A DNA stretch of 64,000 nt, from NCBI GenBank assembly GCA_965214775.1, contig OZ243974.1:1248001-1312000 (forward strand). Reading direction: 5' to 3'. This document shows positions 6,975 through 63,198 of this stretch, piece by piece. Origin of the DNA: Nitrosopumilus sp. (GTDB lineage Archaea; Thermoproteota; Nitrososphaeria; Nitrososphaerales; Nitrosopumilaceae). The notes under the pieces were generated by a model. The model was not told the origin of the DNA. It saw nothing but the letters and a program-made list of their open reading frames with translations, and did not search any database. A program made the translations under genes and the position numbers. How positions within the stretch are numbered: the first letter of the stretch is position 1; each line of letters starts with the position of its first letter.

Positions 6975-7067
6975 GTACGAGGTCACCTACCCCCATCAGT
7001 CAGGCACAAATTAGCATGAATGATTGTAATCTTCGTGCCTAGCTAGCAAGGGGACGTGACCACATAC
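6975..7067. mobile_element. MITE family D (93 bp, GTA termini)
   Basis: Matches 18095-18187 and is related to 21600-21692. TSDs of 8-9 bp. Confidence 0.85.
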
Positions 7068-7104
7068 GAAAAATTTGTTTGGTTTCTAATTTCGGATCAT
7101 CTCT

Positions 7105-7808
7105 CAGGCTGCATGTCACATACAGCGTGGGAAGCATCAGAAGAATCCTGCGCACGATGGGATTCTCGCTAAAGACGTCAACCACCAAGCTGGCAGATGC
7201 TGCCGACGCAAAGTCGGTAAGACAGCGGCAGAGGGATGCAAGAACCGAGATTGCGCTTGCAAAAAGGCGCGGATTCAGGATAACCGTACAGGACGAGTCG
7301 ATATTCGTCAGTACGGGAAGGGACGGCAGAAAGTTCTGGTCGCCAGTGGGGGACAGGATCGAGGTGCAACGATCCGGCAGGAGGGAACGCGTCGTGGTAT
7401 ACGGAACGGTTGCAGACGACGGAACCAGGCTGATGCGCACATACGACAAGTTCAACAGCATAAACTTTGTGCGTTATCTCAAGCAGGCGCACAGAAAGTG
7501 GGGAAGGGTTCTGATTGTGATGGACAACGCATCACAGCACAAGACCGGAAGGGTCCGCAGGTACCTGAGGAAAAATCCCGACGTTGTCCTGCTGTACCTG
7601 CCGGTAGCCAGGCCGGAGCTGAGCGCCATAGAGCCAATCTGGAAGGATGCCAAGTACAGGCTGGTCACATCTGCCTTTTACGATACGGCAGATCACCTCA
7701 AAAGAGCCGTCTCAGAATACTTTAGGACGTGTTCCATCAAGGTTGACATCTACAAATATCTTGAGCGCCGCGTGTAATCAGGCGAAATTTTCAATGATCG
7801 TCAGTATA
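7105..7808 (+). pseudogene. IS630-family transposase, 5'-truncated, with right end
   Basis: QDES, MDNASQH and PELSAIEPIW motifs. The right end recurs inverted at about 4130-4166. Confidence 0.85.
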
Positions 7809-17081: not shown

Positions 17082-18094
17082 TCTCAATTTTTTTGATGCA
17101 CTGCGATGTCGTCCTGCACAAATTCTTTTCCGGAACCTTCCGATCAAATTTTTGAAGCCCTTCTCAAGAATCGATCAAAAGCTTGAGATCCAAGGTGGGC
17201 CCAGCCAACTGGTCATATGCGTAAGAATTTACCCCCTCCCGAAAATACGGCGTGGTAGGCACGGTGTTCAAGGCTCCGGCCAGCAGTGCCGCCTGAGAGG
17301 TGATCCGAAATTAGAAATCGAGCGCCCCGTCCGCAGCCGTCCTGCTGCCGCCACTCATTAGGCCGCAGCAGCGATTCTGGCCGGCACCCTATCGTTGACC
17401 AGTCCGCACACGATACTGTTGGCAAGGTCGTACTTTTTGAGTGGGTTTCGGTACCGGTCGCCCATGATCCTGTATGTTTTGACCCTGCGTATGGTGTTCT
17501 CCACGTACACACGTATCTTTGAGTGCGTGATATTGTACTCTTTTTGCGCATCGGTGAGCTTGCCGCCCGGTTTTTTCTTGATGGAAAGATGATGTCCGTG
17601 CCTGCATCCACTAACTGTGCTCCCTGGTATCCGCGATCCATGTAGTGACGAATCTTGTGCTCTTTTGTTGTTGTTGCGGCGCATCACCATCCCCGCTGCC
17701 GCCGGGACACTTTTTCTCCTTCTCCTTCTCCTTTCTTTGGTCGTACCGGAACGTGGGATGCCTCATCTGGTACATCGTGATGTCGTTTACGCGTCCCGGA
17801 GAGTGGGGTGTCTTGTGCACTATGAGTCCGTGGATGTTGGTGGTGTACTGAACCTTGACTGTGTGCCTGCCTGCCTTGCCTGAATAGTGCGATTTCTCCA
17901 TATCCTTTCTCTTGGGCCTGCATATCTTTTGTTCTGAGGCATCTGTCAGGCAGACAAGTTCTGGCAATACGTCCATTAGTTCCTCTACTGAGGATTATTC
18001 TCTTGGTGCCCGAATAGATCTTTTCGGGGATCGACAGGCACCCCTTGAGAACCGGCGCAATCCTGTCTATCGAGCGCGAGACTGATGCCTGCCC

Positions 18095-18187
18095 GTACGA
18101 GGTCACCTACCCCCATCAGTCAGGCACAAATTAGCATGAATGATTGTAATCTTCGTGCCTAGCTAGCAAGGGGACGTGACCACATAC
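18095..18187. mobile_element. MITE family D
   Basis: 9-bp TSD tgcctgccc. Confidence 0.85.
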
Positions 18188-18241
18188 TGCCTGCCCTATT
18201 CCGAACATGGCAGATGCAACATCCTGTGTGACGTACGTCCT

Positions 18242-18351
18242 GTAGTAGAACAGGGACAGCAGAAGACTCTCCTTCAGAAAGTAACATTCTACAGATTCCG
18301 CGACCGCCAAACCAAGTAGTAGAACAGGGACAGCAGAAGACTCTCCTTCAG
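18242..18351. repeat. Repeat-insert-repeat (36+38+36)
   Basis: gtagtagaacagggacagcagaagactctccttcag at 18242-18277 and 18316-18351. Confidence 0.9.
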
Positions 18352-18675
18352 GCTGAGGGCAGTCGGGCGTCCTGCACCGATGATGTCACGCTTGCGGTCT
18401 TTTTTGGCAGAAAGCAGAAAGCCTCTTTCTGTCCATCTTTGGGTGTTTTTTTGCCACCTTTGCATACAACAAATCAAATTCGGGGGCAGTCATGCCGGCA
18501 AACATCTTCTTGAATGTCCCGGGGGTTTTTTGACAATTTATCAAATAACTTCATGAATTATGTACATTTTACTAGCGTTTGGATCGGGTTGGTGTACATT
18601 ATGTGTCTGTTTGATCAAAATTTGCTAATTTCGAATCAACTCTCAGATGACGATGTATGCTCGAATCCATCTACT

Positions 18676-18838
18676 GAGAGACGATTCGAAACTAGAAACC
18701 GTGCAAATGCCCGGATTTTTCTGTATCTTTGTCAAGTAATTTTACAGACAGACAACCTGCCATTTGTGATCATTTCAATCGATTTGATGCAAGTTTGCTT
18801 GTACATGATCTGAATCTGCCAATTTCGAATCAGCCCTC
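18676..18838. mobile_element. MITE family A2
   Basis: Degenerate family-A TIRs. Homologous to the split MITE at 1533/4103. Confidence 0.7.
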
Positions 18839-19014
18839 TGGCAATGCCAGTCATCGCCGGGATGGCTGCAGCGCCGTCCAAGTTCTCTATCACGAGCTTA
18901 TTCGGGTTCTGGCAAATGCCAGTCATCGCCGGGATGGCTGCTTGCAGACGACGGAACCAGGCTGATGCGCACATACGAGTTCTGGCAAATGCCAGTCATC
19001 GCCGGGATGGCTGC
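18838..19014. CRISPR. CRISPR-like mini-array with three 36-bp repeats and two spacers; no cas genes nearby, probably ectopic
   Basis: gttctggcaaatgccagtcatcgccgggatggctgc at 18906-18941 and 18979-19014, degenerate copy at 18838-18869. Spacers of 36 and 37 nt. Spacer 2 equals 7410-7446. Confidence 0.65.
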
Positions 19015-20611
19015 AGCACCCGTATGCAGGCGGGGCGTATGTGTGGTGCGTGGGGACCGGGGCGGTCTGGTTTATCGCGTACACGCGGACGTTGTCATAC
19101 CAGTTGTGGTGATCCCAGTCCGTTCCCCATATGTCGCGCATGTATAAGACGATGGTGATCGCGTCGCGCCCGGAGGCGTGTCCGGTTATGTCCGTCGTGT
19201 ACGTCTGCCATCCGGTGTCTGTCGTGCCACCAAGCACCAGGTATGAACGGTGCAGCCAGTTGCCCGAGTCCGCATCCAGTATCGCCATCCGAGTGTTGGT
19301 CACGGAGCTGTCTGGGGTTGCGCCGATGGCCTTGTAGTCGTAGGACAGCACGAGCCTCTGCCCGGACACGTCTAGGGAGGATACGTCGACGGTCTTCTGC
19401 ATGCCAGCATATACCACGATCTCGTCCTCCGTGTGCACGTGTGCCGCAGTCCGGCCGTCAACGGACTGCCTGCCAATCTCGTACTCTGTCGCGGTGCCCC
19501 AGTACGACCAGCCCTCAAGCGAGGAATCAAAGGTGTCGTTGAGCGGCATCGCGTGCCTTGTCTGGTGGACCGCCTCCGTCGGTAGCATCTCGACGGTGCC
19601 CGAGCCGGCCCCCTGCCGCACCGCGTATCCGTCAAAGATCCATTCGGAGTGGCCCGTGATGTCGACCGAGCGCAGGATCAATGTATGGCCGTGCGGCGGG
19701 CGCGAGGCCTCTATGAAAAGGGTCACCTCGTCCAGCTGCGAGCGCGACCAGTCCGGCGTCAGGACTACCGTCAGATCGGAGGCGTCATGCGGGGCCGCAT
19801 GCAAGTGCGGGCGCTCGTATGATGCCAGGACGCCGCCGCCCTTGGATGCTGGCCAGGATTCCGTAAAGTCGGATCGATGCCCATCTTCTCGATCCAGCAG
19901 TGCAGGGCCGCCCTTGGATGCTGGCCAGGATTCCGTAAAGTCGGACGCGGCGTACCTTGAATACCCCCCGTCGCGGAGGTATGCGCCGACGTATGGATCC
20001 GTCTCCAGCCCCACATCCAGCACGATGTCGCGGCCGCGCAGCTCCGCGGCGGGGAATGACTTGAAGAGGTGCATTGTGCCGTGGCCGGAGGTAGTCGACC
20101 AGAGCGCGATGTCAGATAGCGACTGCGGATTCATGGTCGCTACCACCGCGCCGTCTCCCCCCACCATCTGGTACTGCCAAGCCGTGTCCAGATAGGACGG
20201 ATCCACTGTTACCGTTGAAGTGGCAGTTACCGTGTTGCCCGACGAGTCGGTTGCGATCCACAGCACGGTAGTCGTGCCAAACCCTAGCCTTGCCGTCGTG
20301 CTGTGGCTCCCAGTCACGTTGTTTGTCACGATGACGGCGGGATCGTCCGCGTTGGCCACCGAGGCCGTTCCCAGATCTACCGTGGTGAGGATTCCCTTGG
20401 CGGCCACCTTTGTATCCGGCGGGACGGTAAGGACGGGCAATTCGCCGCCTGCCTCGTCGGCGGCCCTCATGCCAGACCAATCATAGGTTACAAGAAACGA
20501 TACGACTATCGCTGCGGCCAGTACGGCTACCAGCACTGCGGCTGTCCTCTCAGGGCGCAAACGCCACGGCGTGCGGCTCGCATCCGGCGTTACGGAATGG
20601 GATTCCGACAT
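18923..20611 (-). CDS. Membrane-anchored surface protein (HYR/Ig-like and carbohydrate-binding-like domains), C-terminus disrupted
   Basis: N-terminal TM and HYR-like GTTTVLWIATDSSGN. High GC. The ORF runs into the mini-array. Confidence 0.6.
   Translation of the reverse strand: MSESHSVTPDASRTPWRLRPERTAAVLVAVLAAAIVVSFLVTYDWSGMRAADEAGGELPVLTVPPDTKVAAKGILTTVDLGTASVANADDPAVIVTNNVTGSHSTTARLGFGTTTVLWIATDSSGNTVTATSTVTVDPSYLDTAWQYQMVGGDGAVVATMNPQSLSDIALWSTTSGHGTMHLFKSFPAAELRGRDIVLDVGLETDPYVGAYLRDGGYSRYAASDFTESWPASKGGPALLDREDGHRSDFTESWPASKGGGVLASYERPHLHAAPHDASDLTVVLTPDWSRSQLDEVTLFIEASRPPHGHTLILRSVDITGHSEWIFDGYAVRQGAGSGTVEMLPTEAVHQTRHAMPLNDTFDSSLEGWSYWGTATEYEIGRQSVDGRTAAHVHTEDEIVVYAGMQKTVDVSSLDVSGQRLVLSYDYKAIGATPDSSVTNTRMAILDADSGNWLHRSYLVLGGTTDTGWQTYTTDITGHASGRDAITIVLYMRDIWGTDWDHHNWYDNVRVYAINQTAPVPTHHTYAPPAYGCCSHPGDDWHLPELVCAHQPGSVVCKQPSRR
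19835..19945. repeat. Repeat-insert-repeat (39+33+39), in frame
   Basis: gccgcccttggatgctggccaggattccgtaaagtcgga occurs twice with period 72. Confidence 0.9.
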
Positions 20612-21111
20612 CTTCCCAGCCCCAAACTATGCGCCGCCGTATTGCCTGACTTTGACATATTTTTTAGCAACGGGATCTCGTTTTTATCTTTTTTGCGTAG
20701 GCGCCGTTTATCTATTGTGCCGAAATCATTTCGCACCGGCATAAGGAGGCTGGCAAGGACTGCATTATGCTGTACCGATCAGCAAAACCGATGACAAGGC
20801 TTGGAGAGAGACGTGTCAAATACGTAACGAGTCAGTGCGGCAGGGGAACATGGTAATACGCATTTCCGTAAACAAAAGAAGTGGGGGATGGCTGGGCATG
20901 CGCAGATGGCAGTACAAACTGCAGTGGAGGCGCATGAGACAGTATTCTCAGGTCCGGATACAGCCCAAAGAACTTGTCGACGAGCTCCTCTTGAAAGTTT
21001 GCCTGGCGCATCTCGTCCTCCGCGCTGACTTCGGGACATAACACCTCGAAGAATGCTGTCATATCATGCATTGATTACTCCGGGCTGCTCACTCCGCTCA
21101 GCGGATCCTCA

Positions 21112-21250
21112 GAGAGGTGATCCGAAATTAGAAGCCGTGCGAATTTTTCAAGTAATTTCACAGATAATCTGTATTTTGTTGGTGTTTTGAGCCGTTTTAT
21201 GCAAATTCGTTCACAAATAATCAGAGTCTGCTAATTTCGAATCAACTCTC
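21112..21250. mobile_element. MITE family A
   Basis: TIRs as in the element at 17296-18643. Confidence 0.85.
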
Positions 21251-21403
21251 AGGCTGATGTGCAGGCTCAGAAAGACAAACACCCGCAGGAGGTTCGGTCT
21301 GCAAGGCCATAGGATGGAACCTTGAGGTGCTAAACAGGATGGAGTGTGCTGCAAGGATTGGCGTGCCGGTGGAGGCAGCCTGAGGTGAATTAGGCGACAA
21401 CCC
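21251..21403 (+). mobile_element. 3' remnant of an IS5-like element carrying the MITE-B terminus
   Basis: ORF tail KAIGWNLEVLNR...EAA* followed by gaattaggcgacaacccc. Confidence 0.5.
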
Positions 21404-25242: not shown

Positions 25243-27744
25243 TTACGTATACTTGACGTCCCCGTGTGCCGTACCACCGTTTCCTCCGCCCGAAGAGTCC
25301 GACAGATCGCCCTCGAACTCAAGGTGCATCAGGAGCGCACCATCATAGTCTCCCATACACGCATGATCACCGGTAAGCGCGTCGACGGTGCCGGTGCCTT
25401 TGGTGTCTGACACGGTAGCCATCTCCACATGGCATTTGTGTACGTCCGATATGTAGTCGGCAGGCAACCGTGCCGAGTATATCATGATATCATCCAGCAC
25501 GGTATCCTGTGCAGGATTTCTGCCGATGCTACTAGCACCTATCGCAAGCCGGTGATCATTTGCAACGGATCCTGCCAGCGACGTGTTGTACCAGCGCAGA
25601 TTGTCGATCTGTCCGTCCACGTACACGTCGAGTCCGCCCCTGTCTCCTGAGCCATCATAGGTAAACACGATGTGGTGCCAGCGGCCGTCGGTCATGCCGG
25701 AGAACGTGCCGACGGTGATCTGGCTTTGCGCATCGTCTGCCATCCGGAATGAAATCCCGCCATATGGGTTGCCCCATACGGTGATGCCCTGCTGCCTGGC
25801 CGCGTCAGCCTTTGAGATGATCAACGAGTCAGGGTTGCCGGGTTCGAGCATCTTGATCCAGAAGGCTATGCTGAACGGATCGGCCCCACCGAGATCGAGT
25901 CCGGGTGCGGCGGCAAGCGTGACGTATGCAGTGCCGTCAAGGTGGAGGGCCCGGCCGGCGGGGCCGTATGCAGGCAGGGACGTCCACCCGGGCGGGTTCC
26001 ACACCGTCACCTCCATACTGCTACTGAAATGTCGGTGGAACTTGGATGGTATCGGCGTGTCTGGTTTTGAGGGACCCTGAAACTCGATTACCCTATCACT
26101 GCCATCGTATATGTCAACATACCGCTGTGACCAGTCCGTTTCCGGAGACGCCGTCGCATTGCCCCCATCACCACCGCCGGTCTCCAGCACGTTCCTATGA
26201 AACTTGACCCTGTCGACAGAGTCGATCATTACGATCTTGTTGGTTTTGTGCGGACGCGTGTCGTACAGGTCATATCTGTCCAAGCTTGAATGGGTAATAT
26301 TGTAGCCGTGCAGCCGCCATGATTCGTTAATCAGCCACATGATTATTTCCGCGTCGGAGCCGGCATAGTTTTGCAGCGCAAAGAACAGTGCGCTAGGATA
26401 GGCAGACATCGTGTCCCAATGCACAAACACTCCCGACGTGGACAGGCCGAGCGCCGCGACGGCAAGCAAGGCAGCCAGCAACAGCGTGCGCTGCCTCCCC
26501 GGATCCTGTATTCTGGCTGATGCCCTTTCAATCCCTGCGCCGATCAGTGCGGCGGCGGCAATGCACATCACAGTCCACAACATCCCCAGATGGTAGAGGT
26601 ACGTCACGAACCCGATTGATCCAAAGAACAGCAGGACGGGTGCGGCCCACAGCAGCAGAAACCTGTTGCGTGAGGCCACCGCAAAGGCCAGTCCTGCTGT
26701 GCCCAGCGATACCATGACCGGATCCATCTCGAACAGCAGTATCGTGGCCACCAGCATGATCGCAGGACGGGTCAGTATGTCAGGATCCTGGTCATATACG
26801 AGGGCGATCGACGTGTATTGCTGCAGCAGATCCAGCTTGGACTGACTGCCCCTGTCTGTGTGCCACAGGACGCCGTCCACCCACCCGTCAAAATCACCTG
26901 CCAGTGCCGCAGAGGCGGGCCAGGCTGCCGCAATCAGGATTGCGGGCACAAGCCACAGCAGTACGCGCCCCGGCCTCCTGCCGGCCGACCAGACCAGAGC
27001 GAGGACAAGCGGGATCATGACAAGCGAGGGAACCTTGACAAGCATGGCGCATCCCATGCAGACACCAGACAGGATGATCAGCAGTCGAACCCTGCCCGGA
27101 GCCGGCGGCAACAGCGGCTCCCCATCCCCACTTCCTTGGAATGGGCCGCGTGCGTACATGGCAAGCAGAACGGAGGACAGGACGAACGGGAGGAGGATCG
27201 AGTCCAGTACAACCAGTCTGAGCGTCAGCGATACGGGCATTACCGCAAACAGGACGGCTGCAATCGGCGCTGCCCTGCGCCCGAAGCCCCTCTCGGCTAT
27301 CTTGTATATCAAAAAGGTGTCCAAGACGGCAAGCAGGCCCATGAGGATGCGCGGTGCCCCGTAAAGCATCCCAAGCGAGGATGCGCCCTCCGGTGTTACA
27401 AAGGAGTCGGGATATCCGGTGGCATGCAGGAATCCGGCCAGCATGGTGATAGAAGAGATGTCATGATATTCGTATGGGTAGGCAGATCCGGTGGCATGCA
27501 GGAATCCGGCCAGCATCGTCCAGCCAAGGAACGGGTGGTCGTGCCTGTCTGACAGTATCTTGTGGTTCAGGACGTCTAGAGCCTGGCCTATGTAGGTTGA
27601 CTCGTCTGGGTGCCACGACGGAAACCCTGCCGTGTTCCACATGTGCGTGTATGCAGAAAGCACCAGTATTGCTACAAGCAGGAGGAGTGGCCCGTGCCCC
27701 GACAGGCGCCCCGTGCGAATGGTGGTACGTCCGAGGCCAAGCAT
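25243..27744 (-). CDS. GT-C (PMT/ArnT-like) membrane glycosyltransferase with LamG domain, probably 3'-truncated
   Basis: PDESTY and DHPFLG motifs, many TM segments, and WHHIVFTYDG...VYVDG. Confidence 0.75.
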   Translation of the reverse strand: MLGLGRTTIRTGRLSGHGPLLLLVAILVLSAYTHMWNTAGFPSWHPDESTYIGQALDVLNHKILSDRHDHPFLGWTMLAGFLHATGSAYPYEYHDISSITMLAGFLHATGYPDSFVTPEGASSLGMLYGAPRILMGLLAVLDTFLIYKIAERGFGRRAAPIAAVLFAVMPVSLTLRLVVLDSILLPFVLSSVLLAMYARGPFQGSGDGEPLLPPAPGRVRLLIILSGVCMGCAMLVKVPSLVMIPLVLALVWSAGRRPGRVLLWLVPAILIAAAWPASAALAGDFDGWVDGVLWHTDRGSQSKLDLLQQYTSIALVYDQDPDILTRPAIMLVATILLFEMDPVMVSLGTAGLAFAVASRNRFLLLWAAPVLLFFGSIGFVTYLYHLGMLWTVMCIAAAALIGAGIERASARIQDPGRQRTLLLAALLAVAALGLSTSGVFVHWDTMSAYPSALFFALQNYAGSDAEIIMWLINESWRLHGYNITHSSLDRYDLYDTRPHKTNKIVMIDSVDRVKFHRNVLETGGGDGGNATASPETDWSQRYVDIYDGSDRVIEFQGPSKPDTPIPSKFHRHFSSSMEVTVWNPPGWTSLPAYGPAGRALHLDGTAYVTLAAAPGLDLGGADPFSIAFWIKMLEPGNPDSLIISKADAARQQGITVWGNPYGGISFRMADDAQSQITVGTFSGMTDGRWHHIVFTYDGSGDRGGLDVYVDGQIDNLRWYNTSLAGSVANDHRLAIGASSIGRNPAQDTVLDDIMIYSARLPADYISDVHKCHVEMATVSDTKGTGTVDALTGDHACMGDYDGALLMHLEFEGDLSDSSGGGNGGTAHGDVKYT
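27414..27516. repeat. Repeat-insert-repeat (31 bp exact, period 72), in frame
   Basis: atccggtggcatgcaggaatccggccagcat occurs twice, giving MLAGFLHATG twice. Confidence 0.85.
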
Positions 27745-31172: not shown

Positions 31173-33019
31173 CGGCCCCGGTTTGCGTTATATGTTTATA
31201 GAGAACTGCGCATACGGCAAATATTGAAGATTATAGCATACCTGTGCGTGTACAACGAGGAGGACATACTGGAGGAGAACGTTCTTTACCACACCGCGCA
31301 GCAGGGGGTGGACATAGTCGTAATAGACAACGGATCAACTGACGCAACTGCCGATATAATCAAAAGGCTGGCAGGAGAGAACAGGATCCTAGATCATGTC
31401 AGGTACACAACAGAAAGATTTTCACTACAGCAGCTGACTAGGGCCGGGTTTGAGCTGGCCAGAAAGCACAATCCGGACTGGATAATACACCTGGATGCCA
31501 GCACGTTTCTTGAGAGCGGTTCCGGATCGGATGTGCCGCTAAGCGAGCAGATACGGAAGGCCGACGAGGCAGGATACAACGTCATCAGCCTGGCATCATA
31601 CGACTTTTACCCGACTGAGAGGGACGATCCGGACGAGTCCAGCGTATTCAAGCGGATGAAGTTCTATGCCAACACAATATACACAAACAGACTACAGGAG
31701 AAGATATTCAAGAACCTTGACGGACTGCTGACCCACAATGGACACAAGATCATATTTCCCAAATCCGCCGAAAAGAAGATATCTGACAAAAAGGCAGTCA
31801 TGCGGCATTACATATTCCGGTCTGCGCCCCACGGCGTAAGAAAGATCCTTGAGAGAAAGAACCGGTGGGATGCCGCCGAGCGTGCAGACAACCACCACAC
31901 CCACTATGACGGCTTTCTTGGATTTGAGGAGGAAATCCCGGTTCCATCTAGGCTCCTTGCGTTCAAAGACGAAGAGGGCGGATGGGACAACTCGATAACA
32001 TACAAAGAACCGCCCCCCCTTCCAACCGAAAAGTATGATATCAACAGGTCACATAGGTTTGACAGACTGCCATTCCGACATTCTGACTGCTGTTTCATTG
32101 TGGGATGTCCGGGTTCGGGAACCTCACTGCTAGGACATATTCTTGAGGGCAATGGCAGTGTCATCTGCTACGGCGAGCCGGCATGCTACGACTATCTGTC
32201 AGATGCGGCCCTGCCTGAGGAGGCCAACAAACAAAAGACTGAAAATGGCGTCCTGGCCTTCGAGTCTGCCGGTATTACAGAATACCTTGACAGTCCAGAC
32301 CGGGCTACAGAATATTCCAGAGGCCGCAGGTTTCCTCCCGCGTTTACATATGACGGCCAGCCGGTTTTATTCCTGGTCAGGGATCCAAGGGACGTATATC
32401 TGTACTTGACGGGGCTCAAATCGGATCCCTTACAGCGTGACGCGGCAGAAGCATGGGAGAAATACATAGATGACCTGGCAGCCGAGGCGAAGGCAAGGGG
32501 CGCCGATCCCGGAGGCGGACATCTCGGAAACCTATCTGCATTGAAAAACGCCGGCAAGCTCTCGCTTGCCGCAAAGGCCGCACTGTATTGGAAGATAAAG
32601 ACAGAGTCATTCTTCAGATATGACGAGCTGGGCTACAACCTGCATCTTGTCCTGTACGAGGATCTGTGCGTGTCGCCCGAGAAAAACCTCGAGGATATTT
32701 GCAACTTTCTAAAAATCCCGTTTGATTCGCAGATGCTAGAACATGACTCCATCAAGCGTGATGTTGGCAAGGGCGGGGTTGCAGATGACGCCCATGTGCG
32801 GCTCATAATGGATCCGGGAGACGCCATAAAATACAGGGGAAATGTTCCCATAGAGGAACAAAGGACAATCCTCTCGATTGCCGGCCCGACATACAAGAAG
32901 ATACAGCACAAATGGATCCAGCAGCTTGGAAAGCCGGACAAGCAGGCCGATGCGTTGGAGACAGCCAAGTCCTATCTTGCTGCCAGAGACGAGAGAATAC
33001 AGGAACTGCAGGAGGATCT

Positions 33020-33489
33020 TGACGAGAAGAACGTCTGGGCGCTGCGCCTTGACGAGGAGGCGGAGATCAAAGATAAGAAGATACGGGAACTTCAAAAGGA
33101 GTTGGACGAGAAGAACGTCTGGGCGCTGCGCCTTGACGAGGAGGCGGAGATCAAAGATAAGAAGATACGGGAACTTCAAAAGGAGTTGGACGAGAAGAAC
33201 GTCTGGGCGCTGCGCCTTGACGAGGAGGCGGAGATCAAAGATAAGAAGATACGGGAACTTCAAAAGGAGTTGGACGAGAAGAGCGTCTGGGCGCTGCGCC
33301 TTGACGAGGAGGCGGAGATCAAAGATAAGAAGATACGGGAACTTCAAAAGGAGTTGGACGAGAAGAGCGTCTGGGCGCTGCGCCTTGACGAGGAGGCGGA
33401 GATCAAAGATAAGAAGATACGGGAACTTCAAAAGGAGTTGGACGAGAAGAGCGTCTGGGCGCTGCGCCTTGACGAGGAGGCGGAGATCA
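33020..33489 (+). repeat. 78-bp tandem repeat, about 6 copies (26-aa coiled coil)
   Basis: ELDEK(N/S)VWALRLDEEAEIKDKKIRELQK units. Confidence 0.95.
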
Positions 33490-33864
33490 GGGACAGGGAG
33501 GCGGAGATCAAAGATAAGAAGCTGGGTGACCTTCAGAGGGAGTTAGACTCTACCAAAAAGACCATAGAGAACAAAGAGTCAGAGATGGCAGATCTGCTAC
33601 AGAAGATGCATGTGCAGAACGACGAATTTGAGGAGATCAGGCAGTCAGTCCTGTTCAAAACTGCATCAGGTCTTGCCAGAAAACTGGACAAGTTGTTCCC
33701 GCAGAATAGCAAAAGGGGCGAGATGTTCAGATTGTCCAAGGCATTGTTTGACATAGTCCAAAACGACGGATATGGGGCCCTTCTGAGAGCCTTTAGGGAG
33801 AAATGGCGCAGCAGATCCGAATCCCCTCCCCCCGAAGACACCAGCATCAGTTATGAAAAGACCA

Positions 33865-35290: not shown

Positions 35291-36825
35291 AGACTTTATG
35301 CATAATCGGCCCATCTGATCTAAAAATACGACACAATAGATCATTATTTGCACACCAACAACCCTAAAGATCTGTATGATTCCCTAACTGTATGGGCTCA
35401 AATGACAAGACTCTCCAAGCATTTCAAGCGTTACAAGCGCAACACGAGATGCTAGTCGAGCAACACGAGCAGGTATCCAAGCAAAACAAACAGATGTCCA
35501 AGCAAAACGAGCGTATGAGGAAGCAGCTTGCGTTTGAGGACTCACTGTGGCAGTCCGAAGAAAACAAGACAAAAAGAGTCGTGCGCGGCGGGACGCCTCT
35601 GCGGATGCACGCAATCGAGGTTGCAGACGGCATAATCGGCGATCCGGTGCGCCTTTGCAACGTCACGGGATGCACAAAGGAGTCATTTACGATCATACTG
35701 GAGCGCTTTACGGAAGAAGTCATGGACGACGAGGACAGGCCCCTGTTCTGGGAGGACGACGTAAGAGGCGGCGATGCCGGAAACCGGTGCAAGCTGTACA
35801 TCAGGCACGCGCTGCTTGCAGTACTCATGAGCATAAGGACCAAGGCAACGCAGCATCATCTGGCCGCAACGTTTGACGTCGACCAGTCCACAATGTCCAG
35901 GTACCTCCGGTACGGTGCCGTGTTACTGCGCCGGCTCCTGCCTGCCTCCGAAAAGCTAACAAGCATCATCTGCAAGACCCCGGCAGGCAAGCTGGAGGAG
36001 GTGCTGATCCCAAAAAAGACGCTCCTGATTGACGGTACCCTGACTCCGGTAGACAGGCCCGGGGACAGGACCGCAAGAAAGACCAGATACTCGGGAAGAA
36101 AAAAGCGGCACATGTTCAACACGATAATTACCTCGAACCTGGACGGCCTCATACTGCACTGCGGCAAGACTGTGGACGGAAGCGTCAACGACAAGGGCGT
36201 GATGAACGCAGGGGGCGGCCCGGACTTTGGAAGGCACACCGGATCAATGAGGAATGCAAAAAACGCAGACGATCCGGAAGAGGCGTTTGTGATTTACAGC
36301 GACCTGGGATTTGAGGGCATTCAAAAGATGCTTCCGGGCGCCATACACAGGCAGCCCCCAAAGAAGCCCAGGGACGGGGATCTTACTGCAACGCAAAAGA
36401 GGCGCCGCAAGCAGATAAGCAGGGTTCGCGTCAGGGTGGAGCACCACATAGGGCGGCTCAAAAGATATGGCATTCTTACCATGCCGTTTGGCGGAACTGC
36501 CAAGGATCTAAACTATTTCATGCAGATAATCACGGGTCTTGAGAACCTCAAGACGATGTTGAAAAGGAAAAAATACTATGGCCAGCTGCTGCAGCAGCTG
36601 CATCTGCTGCCAGACACATGACATACGGCGGTACGGACCGCCATTCTTTCTGACTTGTCAACGGGGCACATTGCCGTGCTGCATGGTTGCGCACGTTCTT
36701 TTGGCGCAACTGGCTTTTACGTGCGTCATGACACGAGATGCATGCGGTAATTTGATCCGATCAGCGCATTTGCGTTTGGAAAAGCCTACGGAATTTTTAA
36801 TCACGGTCGATTACGCATAAAGTCT
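35291..36825 (+). mobile_element. IS5-family ISL2-like element
   Basis: TIR agactttatgc, 3-bp TSD aat. Confidence 0.85.
35392..36621 (+). CDS. ISL2/Harbinger-like DDE transposase
   Basis: LIDGT, YSGRKKRH, DLGFEG and RVRVEHHIGRLK motifs. Confidence 0.88.
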   Translation: MGSNDKTLQAFQALQAQHEMLVEQHEQVSKQNKQMSKQNERMRKQLAFEDSLWQSEENKTKRVVRGGTPLRMHAIEVADGIIGDPVRLCNVTGCTKESFTIILERFTEEVMDDEDRPLFWEDDVRGGDAGNRCKLYIRHALLAVLMSIRTKATQHHLAATFDVDQSTMSRYLRYGAVLLRRLLPASEKLTSIICKTPAGKLEEVLIPKKTLLIDGTLTPVDRPGDRTARKTRYSGRKKRHMFNTIITSNLDGLILHCGKTVDGSVNDKGVMNAGGGPDFGRHTGSMRNAKNADDPEEAFVIYSDLGFEGIQKMLPGAIHRQPPKKPRDGDLTATQKRRRKQISRVRVRVEHHIGRLKRYGILTMPFGGTAKDLNYFMQIITGLENLKTMLKRKKYYGQLLQQLHLLPDT

Positions 36826-49136: not shown

Positions 49137-49246
49137 ACGTCTGGGAAGACTGATCTTCAGGTACGAGTTTACGGGATAACTATCGTGACTGTAATATGTC
49201 GTAAATGCGGACGTCTGGGAAGACTGATCTTCAGGTGCGAGTTTAC
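49137..49246. repeat. Repeat-insert-repeat (36+38+36)
   Basis: acgtctgggaagactgatcttcaggt(a/g)cgagtttac occurs twice. Confidence 0.9.
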
Positions 49247-53555: not shown

Positions 53556-53602
53556 TACTTGACTGAAGCGTGGAGCGCCTTTATAGCAGTTTCCACATCC
53601 GG

Positions 53603-54115
53603 GGCGTTGTCCGGAATCGTGATTTTAGGACGTGATTTCCGGGGAGATTTGTACAAAATCATGGCGCAATGACTGCAAACATAGAGACGAATCCGCACTC
53701 CGGCCCGCATTGTGTAGTTATGGCCCGTGTTTTGACGTCATACTGCATAGCATCCGCTAGCCGGACGATTCCACCGTACCGGCATTATGGATCCTAGCTG
53801 ACCAGATTGTAGCAGAATACCTTGAGGGTAAGCCTGAGCGACTGCATCGGAAGCGACATGGCGCGCACCGTGGAGTCAAACCTTGCCTTTATCGACGAGA
53901 AGGCCGACTCAACGAGGCTGCGCTGGTGGTACGTCTTCTCGAATCCCTCGGGGTCCTTTTTGTGCCATCTTAGCATCTTGGAGCGGGCGTTGAACCCGTG
54001 AACCGTATATCCTGTACGCGGACATATCACTGGGGTTCTGCCTCCGTCGGCTATGACCCTGCAGTTCTCATACGAGTCGTATGCGGCATCCAGGATCACG
54101 TGTCCTGTGCCGTTG
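53603..54115 (-). mobile_element. IS5 copy 3, 3' portion only
   Basis: Reverse complement of about 3453-3965. Confidence 0.9.
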
Positions 54116-58405: not shown

Positions 58406-60070
58406 GGGATTGTCACCTAATTCGCCAGAACTCCTGAAAACCACTGAGATGTCAGTGGATCAGACGTGCAAAATGGCGGAAATTCAGAAAAACGTGCAGG
58501 TTGAGTCAAACAAGTCAGTACTTCCTAGGTGTACTTTTACAGGCACGGTAATTACGTAATTTGGAGAAGATCTTATGCGTAAACGAAGTTAGCGGCTATG
58601 GCGTGCCGGGTCTGCAAAAGCACATCTATAGCAACGAGCAGAAATAATTGAGGTTTTTTACGTGTAGGGCGTTGTCCGGAATCGTGATTTTAGGACGTGA
58701 TTTCCGGGGAGATTTGTACAAAATCATGGCGCAATGACTGCAAACATAGAGACGAATCCGCACTCCGGCCCGCATTGTGTAGTTATGGCCCGTGTTTTGA
58801 CGTCATACTGCATAGCATCCGCTAGCCGGACGATTCCACCGTACCGGCATTATGGATCCTAGCTGACCAGATTGTAGCAGAATACCTTGAGGGTAAGCCT
58901 GAGCGACTGCATCGGAAGCGACATGGCGCGCACCGTGGAGTCAAACCTTGCCTTTATCGACGAGAAGGCCGACTCAACGAGGCTGCGCTGGTGGTACGTC
59001 TTCTCGAATCCCTCGGGGTCCTTTTTGTGCCATCTTAGCATCTTGGAGCGGGCGTTGAACCCGTGAACCGTATATCCTATACGCGGACATATCACTGGGG
59101 TTCTGCCTCCGTCGGCTATGACCCTGCAGTTCTCATACGAGTCGTATGCGGCATCCAGGATCACGTGTCCTGTGCCGTTGGGAACCTGCGGTAGCAGCTC
59201 GTTACGGAACACCGGGGAATCATGGAATTCGCCCGGCGTCACCTCGCAGGCGGCAATCTTGCCGTGCGGGGCCAACAGTATGTGCAGCTTGGCAAACATC
59301 TGCCTGGATATGACGCCCTTCTTTGCGTCCTCCCATGTGTGGTATCTCATTATGGAGAAACCGCTAGAGTCGCCAAGCAACGTTCCCCTGGCGTCTGCGC
59401 CTGCCTGTTCTGAGAGTACCGATCTTAGCACCGACTTGTCCCAGGCAGCTATCCTTACGGCTGCATCATGCAGTGTCGACTTGGCCGGAACCTTTTTGAG
59501 CCCGTACATGTTAGTTGAACCAGGATTCGACTCCATGTATTCGACGTGTCTGCGATACGAGTTTCCGCGGTACTCCATGTCGAGTACGCACAGAAGATAG
59601 GGAATTTCATCCTCTTGCTCTGTGTTATGGAGGAGGGACAGGAGGATCTTGCGGATCTTTTTGATTCCGATGCCGCACCTCTTGCTGTCCTCTCTCCTTT
59701 TTTTCTCGTACTCGGCATAGTATTCCGGAGGTCTCGTGTACTCTGACTTTTTTTTCTTGCTGGTCTTGCTGGATTCCTTCTTGGATTCCTTCTTGGATTC
59801 CTTCTTGGATTCCTTCTTGGATTCCTTCTTGGATTCCTTCTTGGATTCCTTCTTGGATTCCTTCTTGTTGGTCTTTGATTTCATTGATACGGGGACGTCG
59901 ATCCTATGATCCATAAGGTTGTCGCATCCTGCGCTTATGATCTATAAGCTTATCGGTAGATTTCTGGAAAAATTCCGGACAACGCCTACGTGTAGTTATG
60001 ACCTGCTTTGACTCAAAGACTTCTGCCCGTTGCTATAGGAAGTACTGAAGTGGAACTAGGCGACAACCCC
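58406..60070. mobile_element. Four-level nest: MITE B > ISH3-type MITE (58516-60047) > MITE C (58629-60035) > IS5 (58668-59986)
   Basis: The three inner layers have TSDs aagt, ta and tacgtgtag. Confidence 0.85.
58859..59914 (-). CDS. IS5-family transposase, copy 2, (KKES)8
   Basis: Near-identical to 2707-3774. Confidence 0.9.
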   Translation of the reverse strand: MDHRIDVPVSMKSKTNKKESKKESKKESKKESKKESKKESKKESKKESSKTSKKKKSEYTRPPEYYAEYEKKRREDSKRCGIGIKKIRKILLSLLHNTEQEDEIPYLLCVLDMEYRGNSYRRHVEYMESNPGSTNMYGLKKVPAKSTLHDAAVRIAAWDKSVLRSVLSEQAGADARGTLLGDSSGFSIMRYHTWEDAKKGVISRQMFAKLHILLAPHGKIAACEVTPGEFHDSPVFRNELLPQVPNGTGHVILDAAYDSYENCRVIADGGRTPVICPRIGYTVHGFNARSKMLRWHKKDPEGFEKTYHQRSLVESAFSSIKARFDSTVRAMSLPMQSLRLTLKVFCYNLVS

Positions 60071-60932: not shown

Positions 60933-62417
60933 AGACTTTATGCGTAATTGGAAAATCTGATCTAAAAATACAACACAACAGATCATGGTTTGCATACCTA
61001 CAACCATAAAGATCAGTAATGGTTCTCTAACGGTATGGGTTCAGATGTCGAGCTTGTCCAAACACTGCAAGAGCAAAACAAGAGTTTGGTAGAGCAAAAC
61101 GAGCATCTGAAGAGCAGGCTTGCGTTTGAGGACTCGCTGTGGCAGTCCGAAGAAAACAAGACAAAAAGAGTCGTGCGCGGCGGGACGCCTCTGCGGATGC
61201 ACGCAATCGAGGTTGCAGACGGCATAATCGGCGATCCGGTGCGCCTTTGCAACGTCACGGGATGCACAAAGGAGTCATTTGAGATCATACTGGAGCGCTT
61301 TACGGAAGAAGTCATGGACGACGAGGACAGGCCCCTGTTCTGGGAGGACGACGTAAGAGGCGGCGATGCCGGAAACCGGTGCAAGCTGTACATCAGGCAC
61401 GCGCTGCTTGCAGTACTCATGAGCATAAGGACCAAGGCAACGCAGCATCATCTGGCCGCGACATTTGACGTCGACCAGTCCACAATGTCCAGGTACCTCC
61501 GGTACGGTGCCGTGTTACTGCGCCAGCTCCTGCCTGCCTCCGAAAAGCTAACAAGCATCATCTGCAAGACCCCGGCAGGCAAGCTGGAGGAGGTGCTGAT
61601 CCCAAAAAAGACGCTCCTGATTGACGGCACCCTGACTCCGGTAGACAGGCCCGGGGACAGGACCGCAAGAAAGACCAGATACTCGGGAAGAAAAAAGCGG
61701 CACATGTTCAACACGATAATTACCTCGAACCTGGACGGCCTCATACTGCACTGCGGCAAGACTGTGGACGGAAGCGTCAACGACAAGGGCGTGATGAACG
61801 CAGGGGGCGGCCCGGACTTTGGAAGGCACACCGGATCAATGAGGAATGCAAAAAACGCAGACGATCCGGAAGAGGCGTTTGTGATTTACAGCGACCTGGG
61901 ATTTGAGGGCATTCAAAAGATGCTTCCGGGCGCCATACACAGGCAGCCCCCAAAGAAGCCCAGGGACGGGGATCTTACTGCAACGCAAAAGAGGCGCCGC
62001 AAGCAGATAAGCAGGGTCCGCGTCAGAGTGGAGCACCACATAGGGCGGCTCAAAAGATATGGCATTCTTACCATGCCGTTTGGCGGAACTGCCAAGGATC
62101 TAAACTATTTCATGCAGATAATCACGGGTCTTGAGAACCTCAAGACTATGCTGAAAAGGAAAAAACACTATGGCCAGCTGCTGCAGCAGCTGCATCTGCT
62201 GCCAGACACATGACATACGGCGGCACGGACCGCCATTCTTTCTGACTTGTCAAAGGGGCACATTGCCGTGCTGCATGGTTGCGCACGTTCTTTTGGCGCA
62301 ACTGGCTTTTACGTGCGTCATGACACGAGATGCATGCGGTAATTTGATCCGATCAGCGCATTTGCGTTTGGAAAAGCCTACGGAATTTTTAATCACGGTC
62401 GATTACGCATAAAGTCT
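60933..62417 (+). mobile_element. ISL2-like element, copy 2 (transposase 61035-62213)
   Basis: TIR agactttatgc. Near-identical to 35291-36825 except for the 5' part. Confidence 0.88.
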
Positions 62418-62725: not shown

Positions 62726-62837
62726 AAGAGGAAAGAAACCGTCTGCGGTGACTCACCTCCTGCATGTCTATGCCGATAATTACGTCACCGTTAATCACGA
62801 AGAGGAAAGAAACCGTCTGCGGTGACTCACCTCCTGC
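62726..62837. repeat. Repeat-insert-repeat (38+36+38)
   Basis: aagaggaaagaaaccgtctgcggtgactcacctcctgc occurs twice. Confidence 0.9.
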
Positions 62838-62881
62838 CCCGCCACCCACCTATCATCTGGGAGGATATGGCCTGACCGCAC

Positions 62882-63198
62882 TGAGATGATCCGAAATTAG
62901 AAACCGTACGAATCTTTCATGTAATTTCACAGATAATCTGTATTTTGTTGATGTTTTGAGCTGATTTACGCAAATTTATTTACAAATAATCAGAATCTGC
63001 TAATTTCAAATCAACTCTCTGGGGGCGAGATTGTGGCGGCGGCACAGTATGCCGTCTCGATGTCGGCGTTAAGGTACTCCATGACTATCTCTACCTTGTC
63101 CTGCGTACTCTATATTTTCTTGGTCATATTTGCGATTCGACCTCCTGACTCAAAAAATATGCGGACAAAAGCATTCCTATTTTATGTGGTCCTCACCA
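62882..63198. mobile_element. MITE A (62882-63019) and an IS3 left-end remnant
   Basis: Similar to other family-A copies and to 29335-29515. Confidence 0.75.

Follow-up and report, generated by a model that had tools for sequence, protein, structure and literature searches.

A two-spacer CRISPR-like unit in a Nitrosopumilus genome, very likely a natural neo-CRISPR locus, and its sister loci

Formation of neo-CRISPR loci by off-target integration has been shown in Escherichia coli overproducing Cas1-Cas2, and circumstantial natural cases come from two species (bioRxiv 10.1101/148544; PMC7054753; PMC6546382); the preprint treats off-target spacer integration in wild genomes as suspected only (bioRxiv 10.1101/148544). 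For arrays that do not lie near cas genes, three origins have been proposed, and off-target acquisition is one of them (Shmakov 2020, cited by PMC13142298). In vitro, Cas1-Cas2 of Pyrococcus furiosus also integrates outside CRISPR, at sites with features in common with the repeat (PMC6698737). Mini-CRISPR arrays occur in archaeal viruses and other mobile elements (PMC7099407), and the viral ones use repeats identical or very similar to those of the host (PMC8616872). Here we describe a unit of three repeat copies and two spacers in a 64,000-nt stretch of the genome of Nitrosopumilus sp. (assembly GCA_965214775.1, contig OZ243974.1, positions 1,248,001 to 1,312,000; hereafter the window). It is very likely a natural neo-CRISPR locus, the product of off-target Cas1-Cas2 integration twice in register, with the spacer derived from an IS630-family insertion sequence (IS) being the newer. 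The genome analysed (Nitrososphaerota) is a single contig of 2.83 Mb; coordinates below are those of the window unless marked as genome positions.

Along the forward strand the unit consists of pseudo-repeat copy 1 (18835..18869), spacer 1 (18870..18905; 36 nt, or 38 nt if the following GT is counted in), copy 2 (18906..18941), spacer 2 (18942..18978; plus strand, 37 nt) and copy 3 (18979..19014), with family spacings of 72 and 73 nt reported by the repeat finder. Copies 2 and 3 are identical at 36/36 positions. Copy 1, the oldest and most worn, agrees exactly over its last 27 nt, has a 1-nt deletion in an A-run and differs at two 5' bases; the original prediction, made from the sequence alone, had counted three copies of a 36-mer, and two of these stand while the first is a variant rather than a perfect copy. 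In other respects the observation is real: the repeats, the spacers and a 37/37 source match for spacer 2 were confirmed from the sequence and by the repeat finder, and both of the hairpins that had been named are present in the 36-mer, which folds at -12.8 kcal/mol in RNAfold, a stability that only 2% of 3000 random genomic 36-mers match. The unit also has the read support on which its reality had been staked, in that copy 1, spacer 1 and the beginning of copy 2 appear with zero differences in public-run contigs (three runs, three studies). Among the contigs of four public runs, none skips a 72-73-nt unit here or at a second locus at 19835 (described below), although contigs cannot reveal rare variants.

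The unit lies at the junction between the tail of a gene and a miniature inverted-repeat transposable element (MITE). The gene is a 562-amino-acid open reading frame (ORF) on the minus strand (18923..20611), with an N-terminal hydrophobic segment and homologues at 51% and 38% identity; it runs through copy 3, which codes for residues ~533-545, and through spacer 2, and terminates inside copy 2, where its present stop codon lies (18923-18925). The unit had thus been placed correctly in the 3' end of an ORF; the accompanying description of a surface protein has a sub-threshold HYR hit as its sole basis. The homologues diverge from this ORF at the C-terminus, where its final residues have been replaced and its tail is longer than the homologue's end. 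The effect on the host gene was most likely modest, with the last ~18 residues of the protein altered. No DNA match to the ORF region was present in 30 genus and order relatives.

On the other side, a MITE of ~167 bp (18674..18840) with terminal inverted repeats (CTGAGAG.../...CTCTCAG-like) abuts copy 1; its kin are found at 21107-21253, at 62876-63022 and elsewhere. Alignment with family members puts the MITE end, ...CTCTG, at 18840, and the first bases of copy 1 (..TCTG, up to 18840) are therefore MITE sequence. TCTG is found again inside both copy 2 and copy 3, which suggests that the stretch that was duplicated spans the MITE-gene junction and that the MITE was already in place. The partial inclusion of a MITE end in the first copy was overlooked in the original prediction, as were the dozens of sister loci described below.

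The genome has exactly one Cas1 gene (232 bits), within a complete type I-B operon (a Cas8b-sized ORF, Cas7, Cas5, Cas3, Cas6b, Cas1, Cas2 and Cas4) that lies 1.16 Mb from the mini-array and adjoins the main CRISPR array. Cas1, Cas2, Cas4 and Cas6b are all full length. In the main array, 68 repeats of 37 nt alternate with spacers that are 33-39 nt long (median 35 nt); Rfam identifies the repeat as CRISPR-DR7 (38.1 bits, minus strand). A second, orphan array (genome 1977219-1978060) has 12 repeats of 36 nt ending ATTGAAGC, the last of them degenerate, and spacers of 36-39 nt; the 7 kb to each side contain zero cas genes, and an IS110-family transposase lies close by. The periods of both genuine arrays are ~72-74 nt, and the repeats of both end 3' in ATTGAA(A/G)C.

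The 36-mer of the mini-array resembles neither of these repeats. Its best identity to either is 13/36, as for random 36-mers, and it does not have their shared 3' end. It matches no Rfam family at E<=1, and neither the genome nor viral or metagenome contigs yielded a further copy. The flanks of the unit are the gene tail and the MITE; a leader and adjacent cas genes were not found there. In a canonical array the spacers would be expected to be free of perfect matches to the host chromosome; spacer 2 matches resident IS copies at 37/37, as 0 of the 78 canonical spacers do.

Spacer 2 reproduces the sense strand of an IS630-family transposase gene exactly, being identical to plus-strand positions 7410..7446 at 37/37 as originally noticed, with identity that ends exactly at both borders. 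This protospacer lies inside the transposase ORF at 7079-7777 (Pfam DDE_3, 1.6e-22). A second IS copy also matches at 37/37, nine further places in the genome match at 36/37 and one at 32/34. With an expectation of E=4e-15 for a 37/37 match in this genome, the identity is more than chance. A 93-nt element that stands directly upstream of the IS630 ORF (6975-7067) recurs with 100% identity at 18095-18187, 55 nt upstream of one of the sister loci (18242); its depth in the public runs is many times the flank depth, which marks it as highly multi-copy, and the insert of another sister locus (genome 2701975) is copied from an end of this kind of element.

Spacer 1 has no second copy in the genome by whole-genome search, zero exact matches in viral or metagenome contigs, and, with <=3 mismatches allowed, no match in a search of 400 other genomes of the phylum. 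Its translation had been likened to a TnpB RuvC motif, a reading that we dropped as unsupported: 12 residues cannot be scored, and there is no related genomic DNA, the best ungapped relative in its own genome being 23/36 where shuffles reach 23-25. A scan of six-frame ORFs of >=300 aa for the motif I/L/V-x-x-E-D/N-L gave six matches, none of them TnpB-like by eye.

The mini-array has numerous relatives of its kind in the same genome. We scanned for isolated 30-42-nt near-exact duplications at distances of 40-130 nt, with both arrays excluded, and found 3, 19, 15, 11, 7 and 1 duplications at distances of 71 to 76 nt (56 in total), against a mean of 1.16 per other distance. From the 57 rows at 69-77 nt we removed nine low-complexity coding repeats, six copies of one IS-borne unit and two doubtful cases; three loci with longer duplications and identifiable insert sources were added, to give 43 loci, which we call scars. 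The duplicates are perfectly identical at 37 of the 43. Exact duplication length has its mode at 36 nt and ranges from 26 to 46 nt, and inserts are 33-41 nt long at most loci. The mini-array is the only locus with two inserts among the ~43. As a set, the pseudo-repeats are no closer to the two canonical repeats (13.2 and 13.3 identities) than random 36-mers are (13.4 and 13.0).

Many of the inserts come from the genome itself. A second genomic copy of >=26 nt exists for 17 of 44 candidate inserts and for none of the 78 canonical spacers, three of which have 17-nt genomic matches that are at chance level. Identity between insert and source typically stops at the insert borders, and several inserts match unique chromosomal places at 100% over their whole length. 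Another ectopic spacer (genome 1501172) matches 12 places, of which those listed lie ~0.5-0.6 kb from copies of the spacer 2 protospacer; it seems to derive from the same IS family.

We also found the unoccupied form of some targets. For 11 of the 44 candidates, paralogous IS, MITE or gene copies carry the target once and no insert, with an overlap of 33-44 nt (mostly 35-37 nt). A scar further up the 562-aa ORF (19835..19945; 39-nt exact duplication, 33-nt insert, period 72) is in frame, and the 24 residues that it adds are exactly the gap in both homologues, in which the duplicated peptide is single. Because of these unoccupied paralogues and this gap, the scars are insertions with target duplication and not ancestral repeats. 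Transposon insertion with target-site duplication was considered and rejected: every insert is different, the places from which they were copied are unrelated, and the duplication is ~36 bp. The target-site duplications of ISs and MITEs are in general far shorter than that.

Four more scars lie in the window. The one at 18242..18351 (36-nt exact duplication, 38-nt insert) has 14 paralogues that carry the target once without insert; contigs of three public runs contain a joint at 18241/18316 that skips 74 nt, which most likely stems from these 14 unoccupied paralogues and not from an allele. The others are at 27414..27516 (31-nt exact duplication, period 72; one unoccupied paralogue), 49137..49246 (36-nt duplication with one mismatch, 38-nt insert, period 74) and 62726..62837 (38-nt exact duplication, 36-nt insert, period 74). 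There is some clustering, in that three loci fall in a stretch of 2 kb (p=0.02) and six in one of 64 kb (p=0.08), and multi-copy DNA flanks 16 of the 43 loci compared with 23% of random sites; both excesses are mild, and survivorship could explain them. Directly upstream of the scar cluster, on the minus strand at 17213-18106, a DDE_Tnp_4 transposase gene is split into at least three overlapping ORFs by frameshifts or stops. Palindromes were tried as a general feature of the sites and are not relied on: pseudo-repeats have a mean minimum free energy of -5.9 versus -4.8 (p=0.02), a weak signal confounded by GC content (0.51 versus 0.47). A longer unit was seen at genome positions 249976, 885706, 903893, 1523218, 1943907, 2105962 and 2276086, where a 33-39-nt duplication surrounds a 43-46-nt insert with a period of 79-82 nt; with at least seven copies in both orientations, this may be a scar in a mobile element that has multiplied or a structural feature of the element.

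Two successive spacer-type integrations at an ectopic, non-CRISPR site, as the original prediction had it, are well supported by the array geometry, the unrelated repeat, the ~43 sister loci and the diverged copy 1. The following order of events would account for the unit. First, the MITE would already have been in place downstream of the gene tail and abutting it. Second, spacer 1 would have been integrated by staggered cuts ~34-36 bp apart across the MITE-gene junction, gap repair then duplicating the stretch between them. Third, and later, the gene-proximal copy would have received, in register, a 37-nt fragment of an IS630-family transposase gene from the same chromosome, with a renewed duplication of 36 bp. 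The machinery would be the resident type I-B Cas1-Cas2, with Cas4, acting off target. With copy 1 diverged from the identical copies 2 and 3, the IS630 integration should be the younger of the two, in keeping with the 100% match of its spacer to two IS copies and with a spacer 1 whose source could not be traced. The two differing 5' bases of copy 1 would need no mutation if the first event duplicated 34 bp with a 38-nt insert and the second duplicated 36 bp, two of which came from spacer 1; failing that, they are substitutions. The resulting polarity is that of an array: the newer spacer is gene-proximal, the worn repeat is at the far end, and the gene stands in the leader's place.

Several observations point to Cas1-Cas2 as the catalyst. 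First, the lengths agree. The inserts of 36 and 37 nt fall within the spacer ranges of the host (33-39 and 36-39 nt), the target duplication of 36 bp, which is also the genome-wide mode, compares with genuine repeats of 36 and 37 nt, and the scar period of 72-74 nt together with the duplication of 36 matches the units of the resident arrays (37+35 and 36+37.5). Second, a weak motif is present at both ends of the sites, with Y-R-S-Y in the flank followed by S-T-n-G-n-A-A-A. The matrix for this motif was learned on the 13 loci whose duplication is exact over 36 nt; it sets 12 held-out loci well apart from random sites (p=1.3e-5) and ranks each of the genuine repeats' four ends higher than the random median, with one at the ~99th percentile. 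Third, a Cas1-positive relative, G446, has an array with a repeat of 36 nt and periods of 70-73 nt (mode 71), and in its 2.06 Mb there are four clean scars with periods of 70, 70, 72 and 73 nt (702585, 731766, 981256 and 1025450 of its contig C1; 36-38-nt duplication, 34-35-nt insert), leucine-rich-repeat coding units having been set aside by eye. The G446 genome is full of such coding units, of 72 and 75 nt, which mimic the scar signal. Fourth, rough arithmetic gives a chance of ~0.002 for a random in-register coincidence of two among ~44 events in 2.83 Mb, which suggests that the site or the existing duplication attracts integration.

Some observations weigh against off-target Cas1-Cas2 integration. 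No unoccupied site was found for the mini-array's own target among the 30 relatives, the contigs of four runs, the homologues and the paralogues. Relative to the cas-linked array, the inserts of ~37 nt are ~2 nt longer and the duplication of 36 bp is 1 bp shorter; the orphan array fits better. There is no consistent protospacer-adjacent motif (PAM) among ~12 sharp self protospacers. Longer inserts and the lack of a PAM would fit capture without Cas4 trimming, as Cas4-deletion work reportedly indicates; alternatively, they would fit a second adaptation module that has been lost. A further difficulty is that duplications of 41-46 bp pair with inserts of 28-35 nt, the sum staying at 70-76, as at genome 305641, 849741 and 2701975 (duplication 40-46 bp, insert 28-35 nt, sum 73-76). 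A constant sum is not predicted by a simple model with two independent rulers, one for spacer and one for repeat. Finally, the comparison of relatives has low power: the Cas1-negative nearest relative, G002, has 0-1 doubtful candidate in 0.8 Mb against the four in 2.06 Mb of G446, counts too small to prove Cas1 dependence. Among 40 relatives searched for the gene, 21 have Cas1.

Some of these points are also what a Cas-independent process would have in its favour. Such a process would add ~72-74 nt, in the form of a short DNA copy from elsewhere and a compensating target duplication, with template switching during replication or repair as one possible mechanism, and the likeness to CRISPR would be coincidental or indirect. 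It would suit the nearly constant sum, held although exact duplication ranges from 26 to 46 nt, and the three protospacer-informed loci with a duplication of at least 40-41 bp and an insert of at most 33-35 nt, as well as the unseen PAM and a geometry 1-2 nt off that of the cas-linked array. We nevertheless regard it as unlikely. The scar period follows that of the resident arrays in two genomes (72-74 nt here, 70-73 nt in G446), the modal duplication equals the repeat length, the site motif resembles the ends of genuine repeats, and the in-register re-integration at the mini-array is array-like. Short exact lengths may moreover reflect later point mutations, as in copy 1, and no such process was found described in the literature searched; if it were real, the 72-nt insertion process would itself be undescribed.

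Whatever the origin of the unit, it can be asked whether it now does anything. The boldest answer is that an array has been caught at birth, the duplicated 36-mer, strongly palindromic, carrying the motif and next to a transcribed gene, having become a preferred, polar integration site with the gene as its leader, and a read-through RNA antisense to IS630 restraining the 12-copy transposon. We rate this as improbable; if true, it would mark a route from an integration error to a useful guide without a canonical repeat or Cas6b.

A narrower proposal, that the unit is now functional through a read-through RNA in which 37 nt are antisense to the mRNA of the IS630 transposase, or through a guide resembling a CRISPR RNA (crRNA), either of which would restrain the 12-copy IS, appears very unlikely. 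The orientation that had been pointed out is correct from the coordinates: spacer 2 is sense on the plus strand, so that the minus-strand transcript of the host ORF is antisense to the transposase, and with the stop codon inside copy 2 any full mRNA includes copy 3 and spacer 2. The second ectopic spacer, seemingly from the same IS family, also speaks for function, as does the fold of the 36-mer, the strongest among the 33 pseudo-repeats tested, although this is a single case. Against this, a working type I-B guide directed at 12 chromosomal copies should be lethal, and the pseudo-repeat shares nothing with the substrate of Cas6b. Because it is unrelated to the genuine repeats, processing by Cas6b would not be expected, nor, judging from sequence, would a working crRNA, which would in turn explain why a perfect self-matching spacer is tolerated. 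Self inserts are moreover frequent (17/44) and come mostly from ordinary unique DNA. Their abundance in scars and absence from arrays would look like what is expected of unselected, unexpressed by-products. The mini-array is thus most likely a neutral scar, and we infer that it lacks a function.

That the unit is instead the decayed remnant of a genuine array, its 36-mer a true CRISPR repeat of a lost or foreign cas system, is highly improbable: the three regularly spaced copies, CRISPR-like sizes, palindromes and the retention of one orphan array in the genome favour it, but the searches for the repeat in the genome, viral and metagenome contigs and Rfam, a hit of which in a canonical cas-linked array would have made this the ordinary orphan remnant that the original prediction weighed, were all negative, the 36-mer appears to include the last 4 nt of the MITE, forms the coding tail of the gene and does not have the ATTGAA(A/G)C end, perfect identity links the newest spacer to a resident IS, and ~42 other loci each have a unique 'repeat' of their own.

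The window contains other repeats, in a genome in which 18.8% of the 20-mers are multi-copy. At its two ends, 2730-2897 and 59742-59879, are 12-nt tandem repeats (~10 and 8 units) that are mutually reverse complementary; a gene with a Lys/Glu-rich repeat, present in inverted copies, is their probable source. At 32900-33571 a tandem array with a period of 84 nt (six overlapping 252-nt copies, 73-95% identical) presumably encodes a 28-residue repeat. Two pairs of direct repeats, 53602-53901 / 58667-58966 and 35501-35800 / 61093-61392, are 97-100% identical over at least 300 nt and are probably IS copies.

With off-target Cas1-Cas2 integration as the preferred reading, this genome would be a natural record of such events at ~43 loci. 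The scars would constitute an unselected sample of what adaptation captures, and the contrast between ~40% self inserts in scars and none in arrays would gauge the autoimmune purging of arrays. They would likewise reveal which targets a type I-B integrase intrinsically prefers, in the form of a short end motif, and the double in-register hit would represent the step needed for the birth of a new array. None of these three could be had from canonical arrays. Scars also alter genes, as seen in the 562-aa ORF, whose tail is changed and which has gained 24 residues in frame further up.

Searches of main-text literature gave no account of a wild genome in which such loci number in the dozens, and none of the phenomenon in Nitrososphaerota; one of the papers from the search on that lineage, PMC6563490, uses none of the words ectopic, off-target, mini-array and self-targeting.

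The nearest described relatives are the neo-CRISPR loci. The likeness lies in a spacer-length insert, a repeat-length duplication of an ordinary site that yields a site-specific 'repeat', the presence of an adaptation module in the cell, and the idea that such sites can seed new arrays. Putative natural cases in Yersinia pestis and Sulfolobus islandicus were reportedly put forward by Nivala, Shipman and Church in 2018. The neo-CRISPR work was done in E. coli over-producing type I-E Cas1-Cas2, whereas the setting here is a natural archaeal type I-B genome, with ~43 fixed loci, many self inserts, one second in-register integration with polarity, and a constant sum in the outliers.

Isolated or orphan arrays, as described in PMC13142298, are likewise far from cas genes and have mis-integration as one proposed origin; those arrays are found by detectors and are usually longer, whereas we see a two-spacer stage that overlaps a coding tail and a MITE and has dozens of one-spacer siblings. 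Viral mini-arrays (PMC8616872; PMC7099407) share the format of one or two spacers between two or three repeats; the repeat here is, in contrast, unrelated to both host repeats, and no virus context was seen. Like the off-target sites of P. furiosus (PMC6698737), the sites here have short features in common with the repeat, in our case a weak end motif, and not overall similarity; unlike those plasmid-based in vitro products, ours are chromosomal, repaired, full-site and inherited. The locus belongs to a known kind, to which it adds a natural setting, scale, an archaeal type I-B system, the contrast in self inserts and a second in-register hit.

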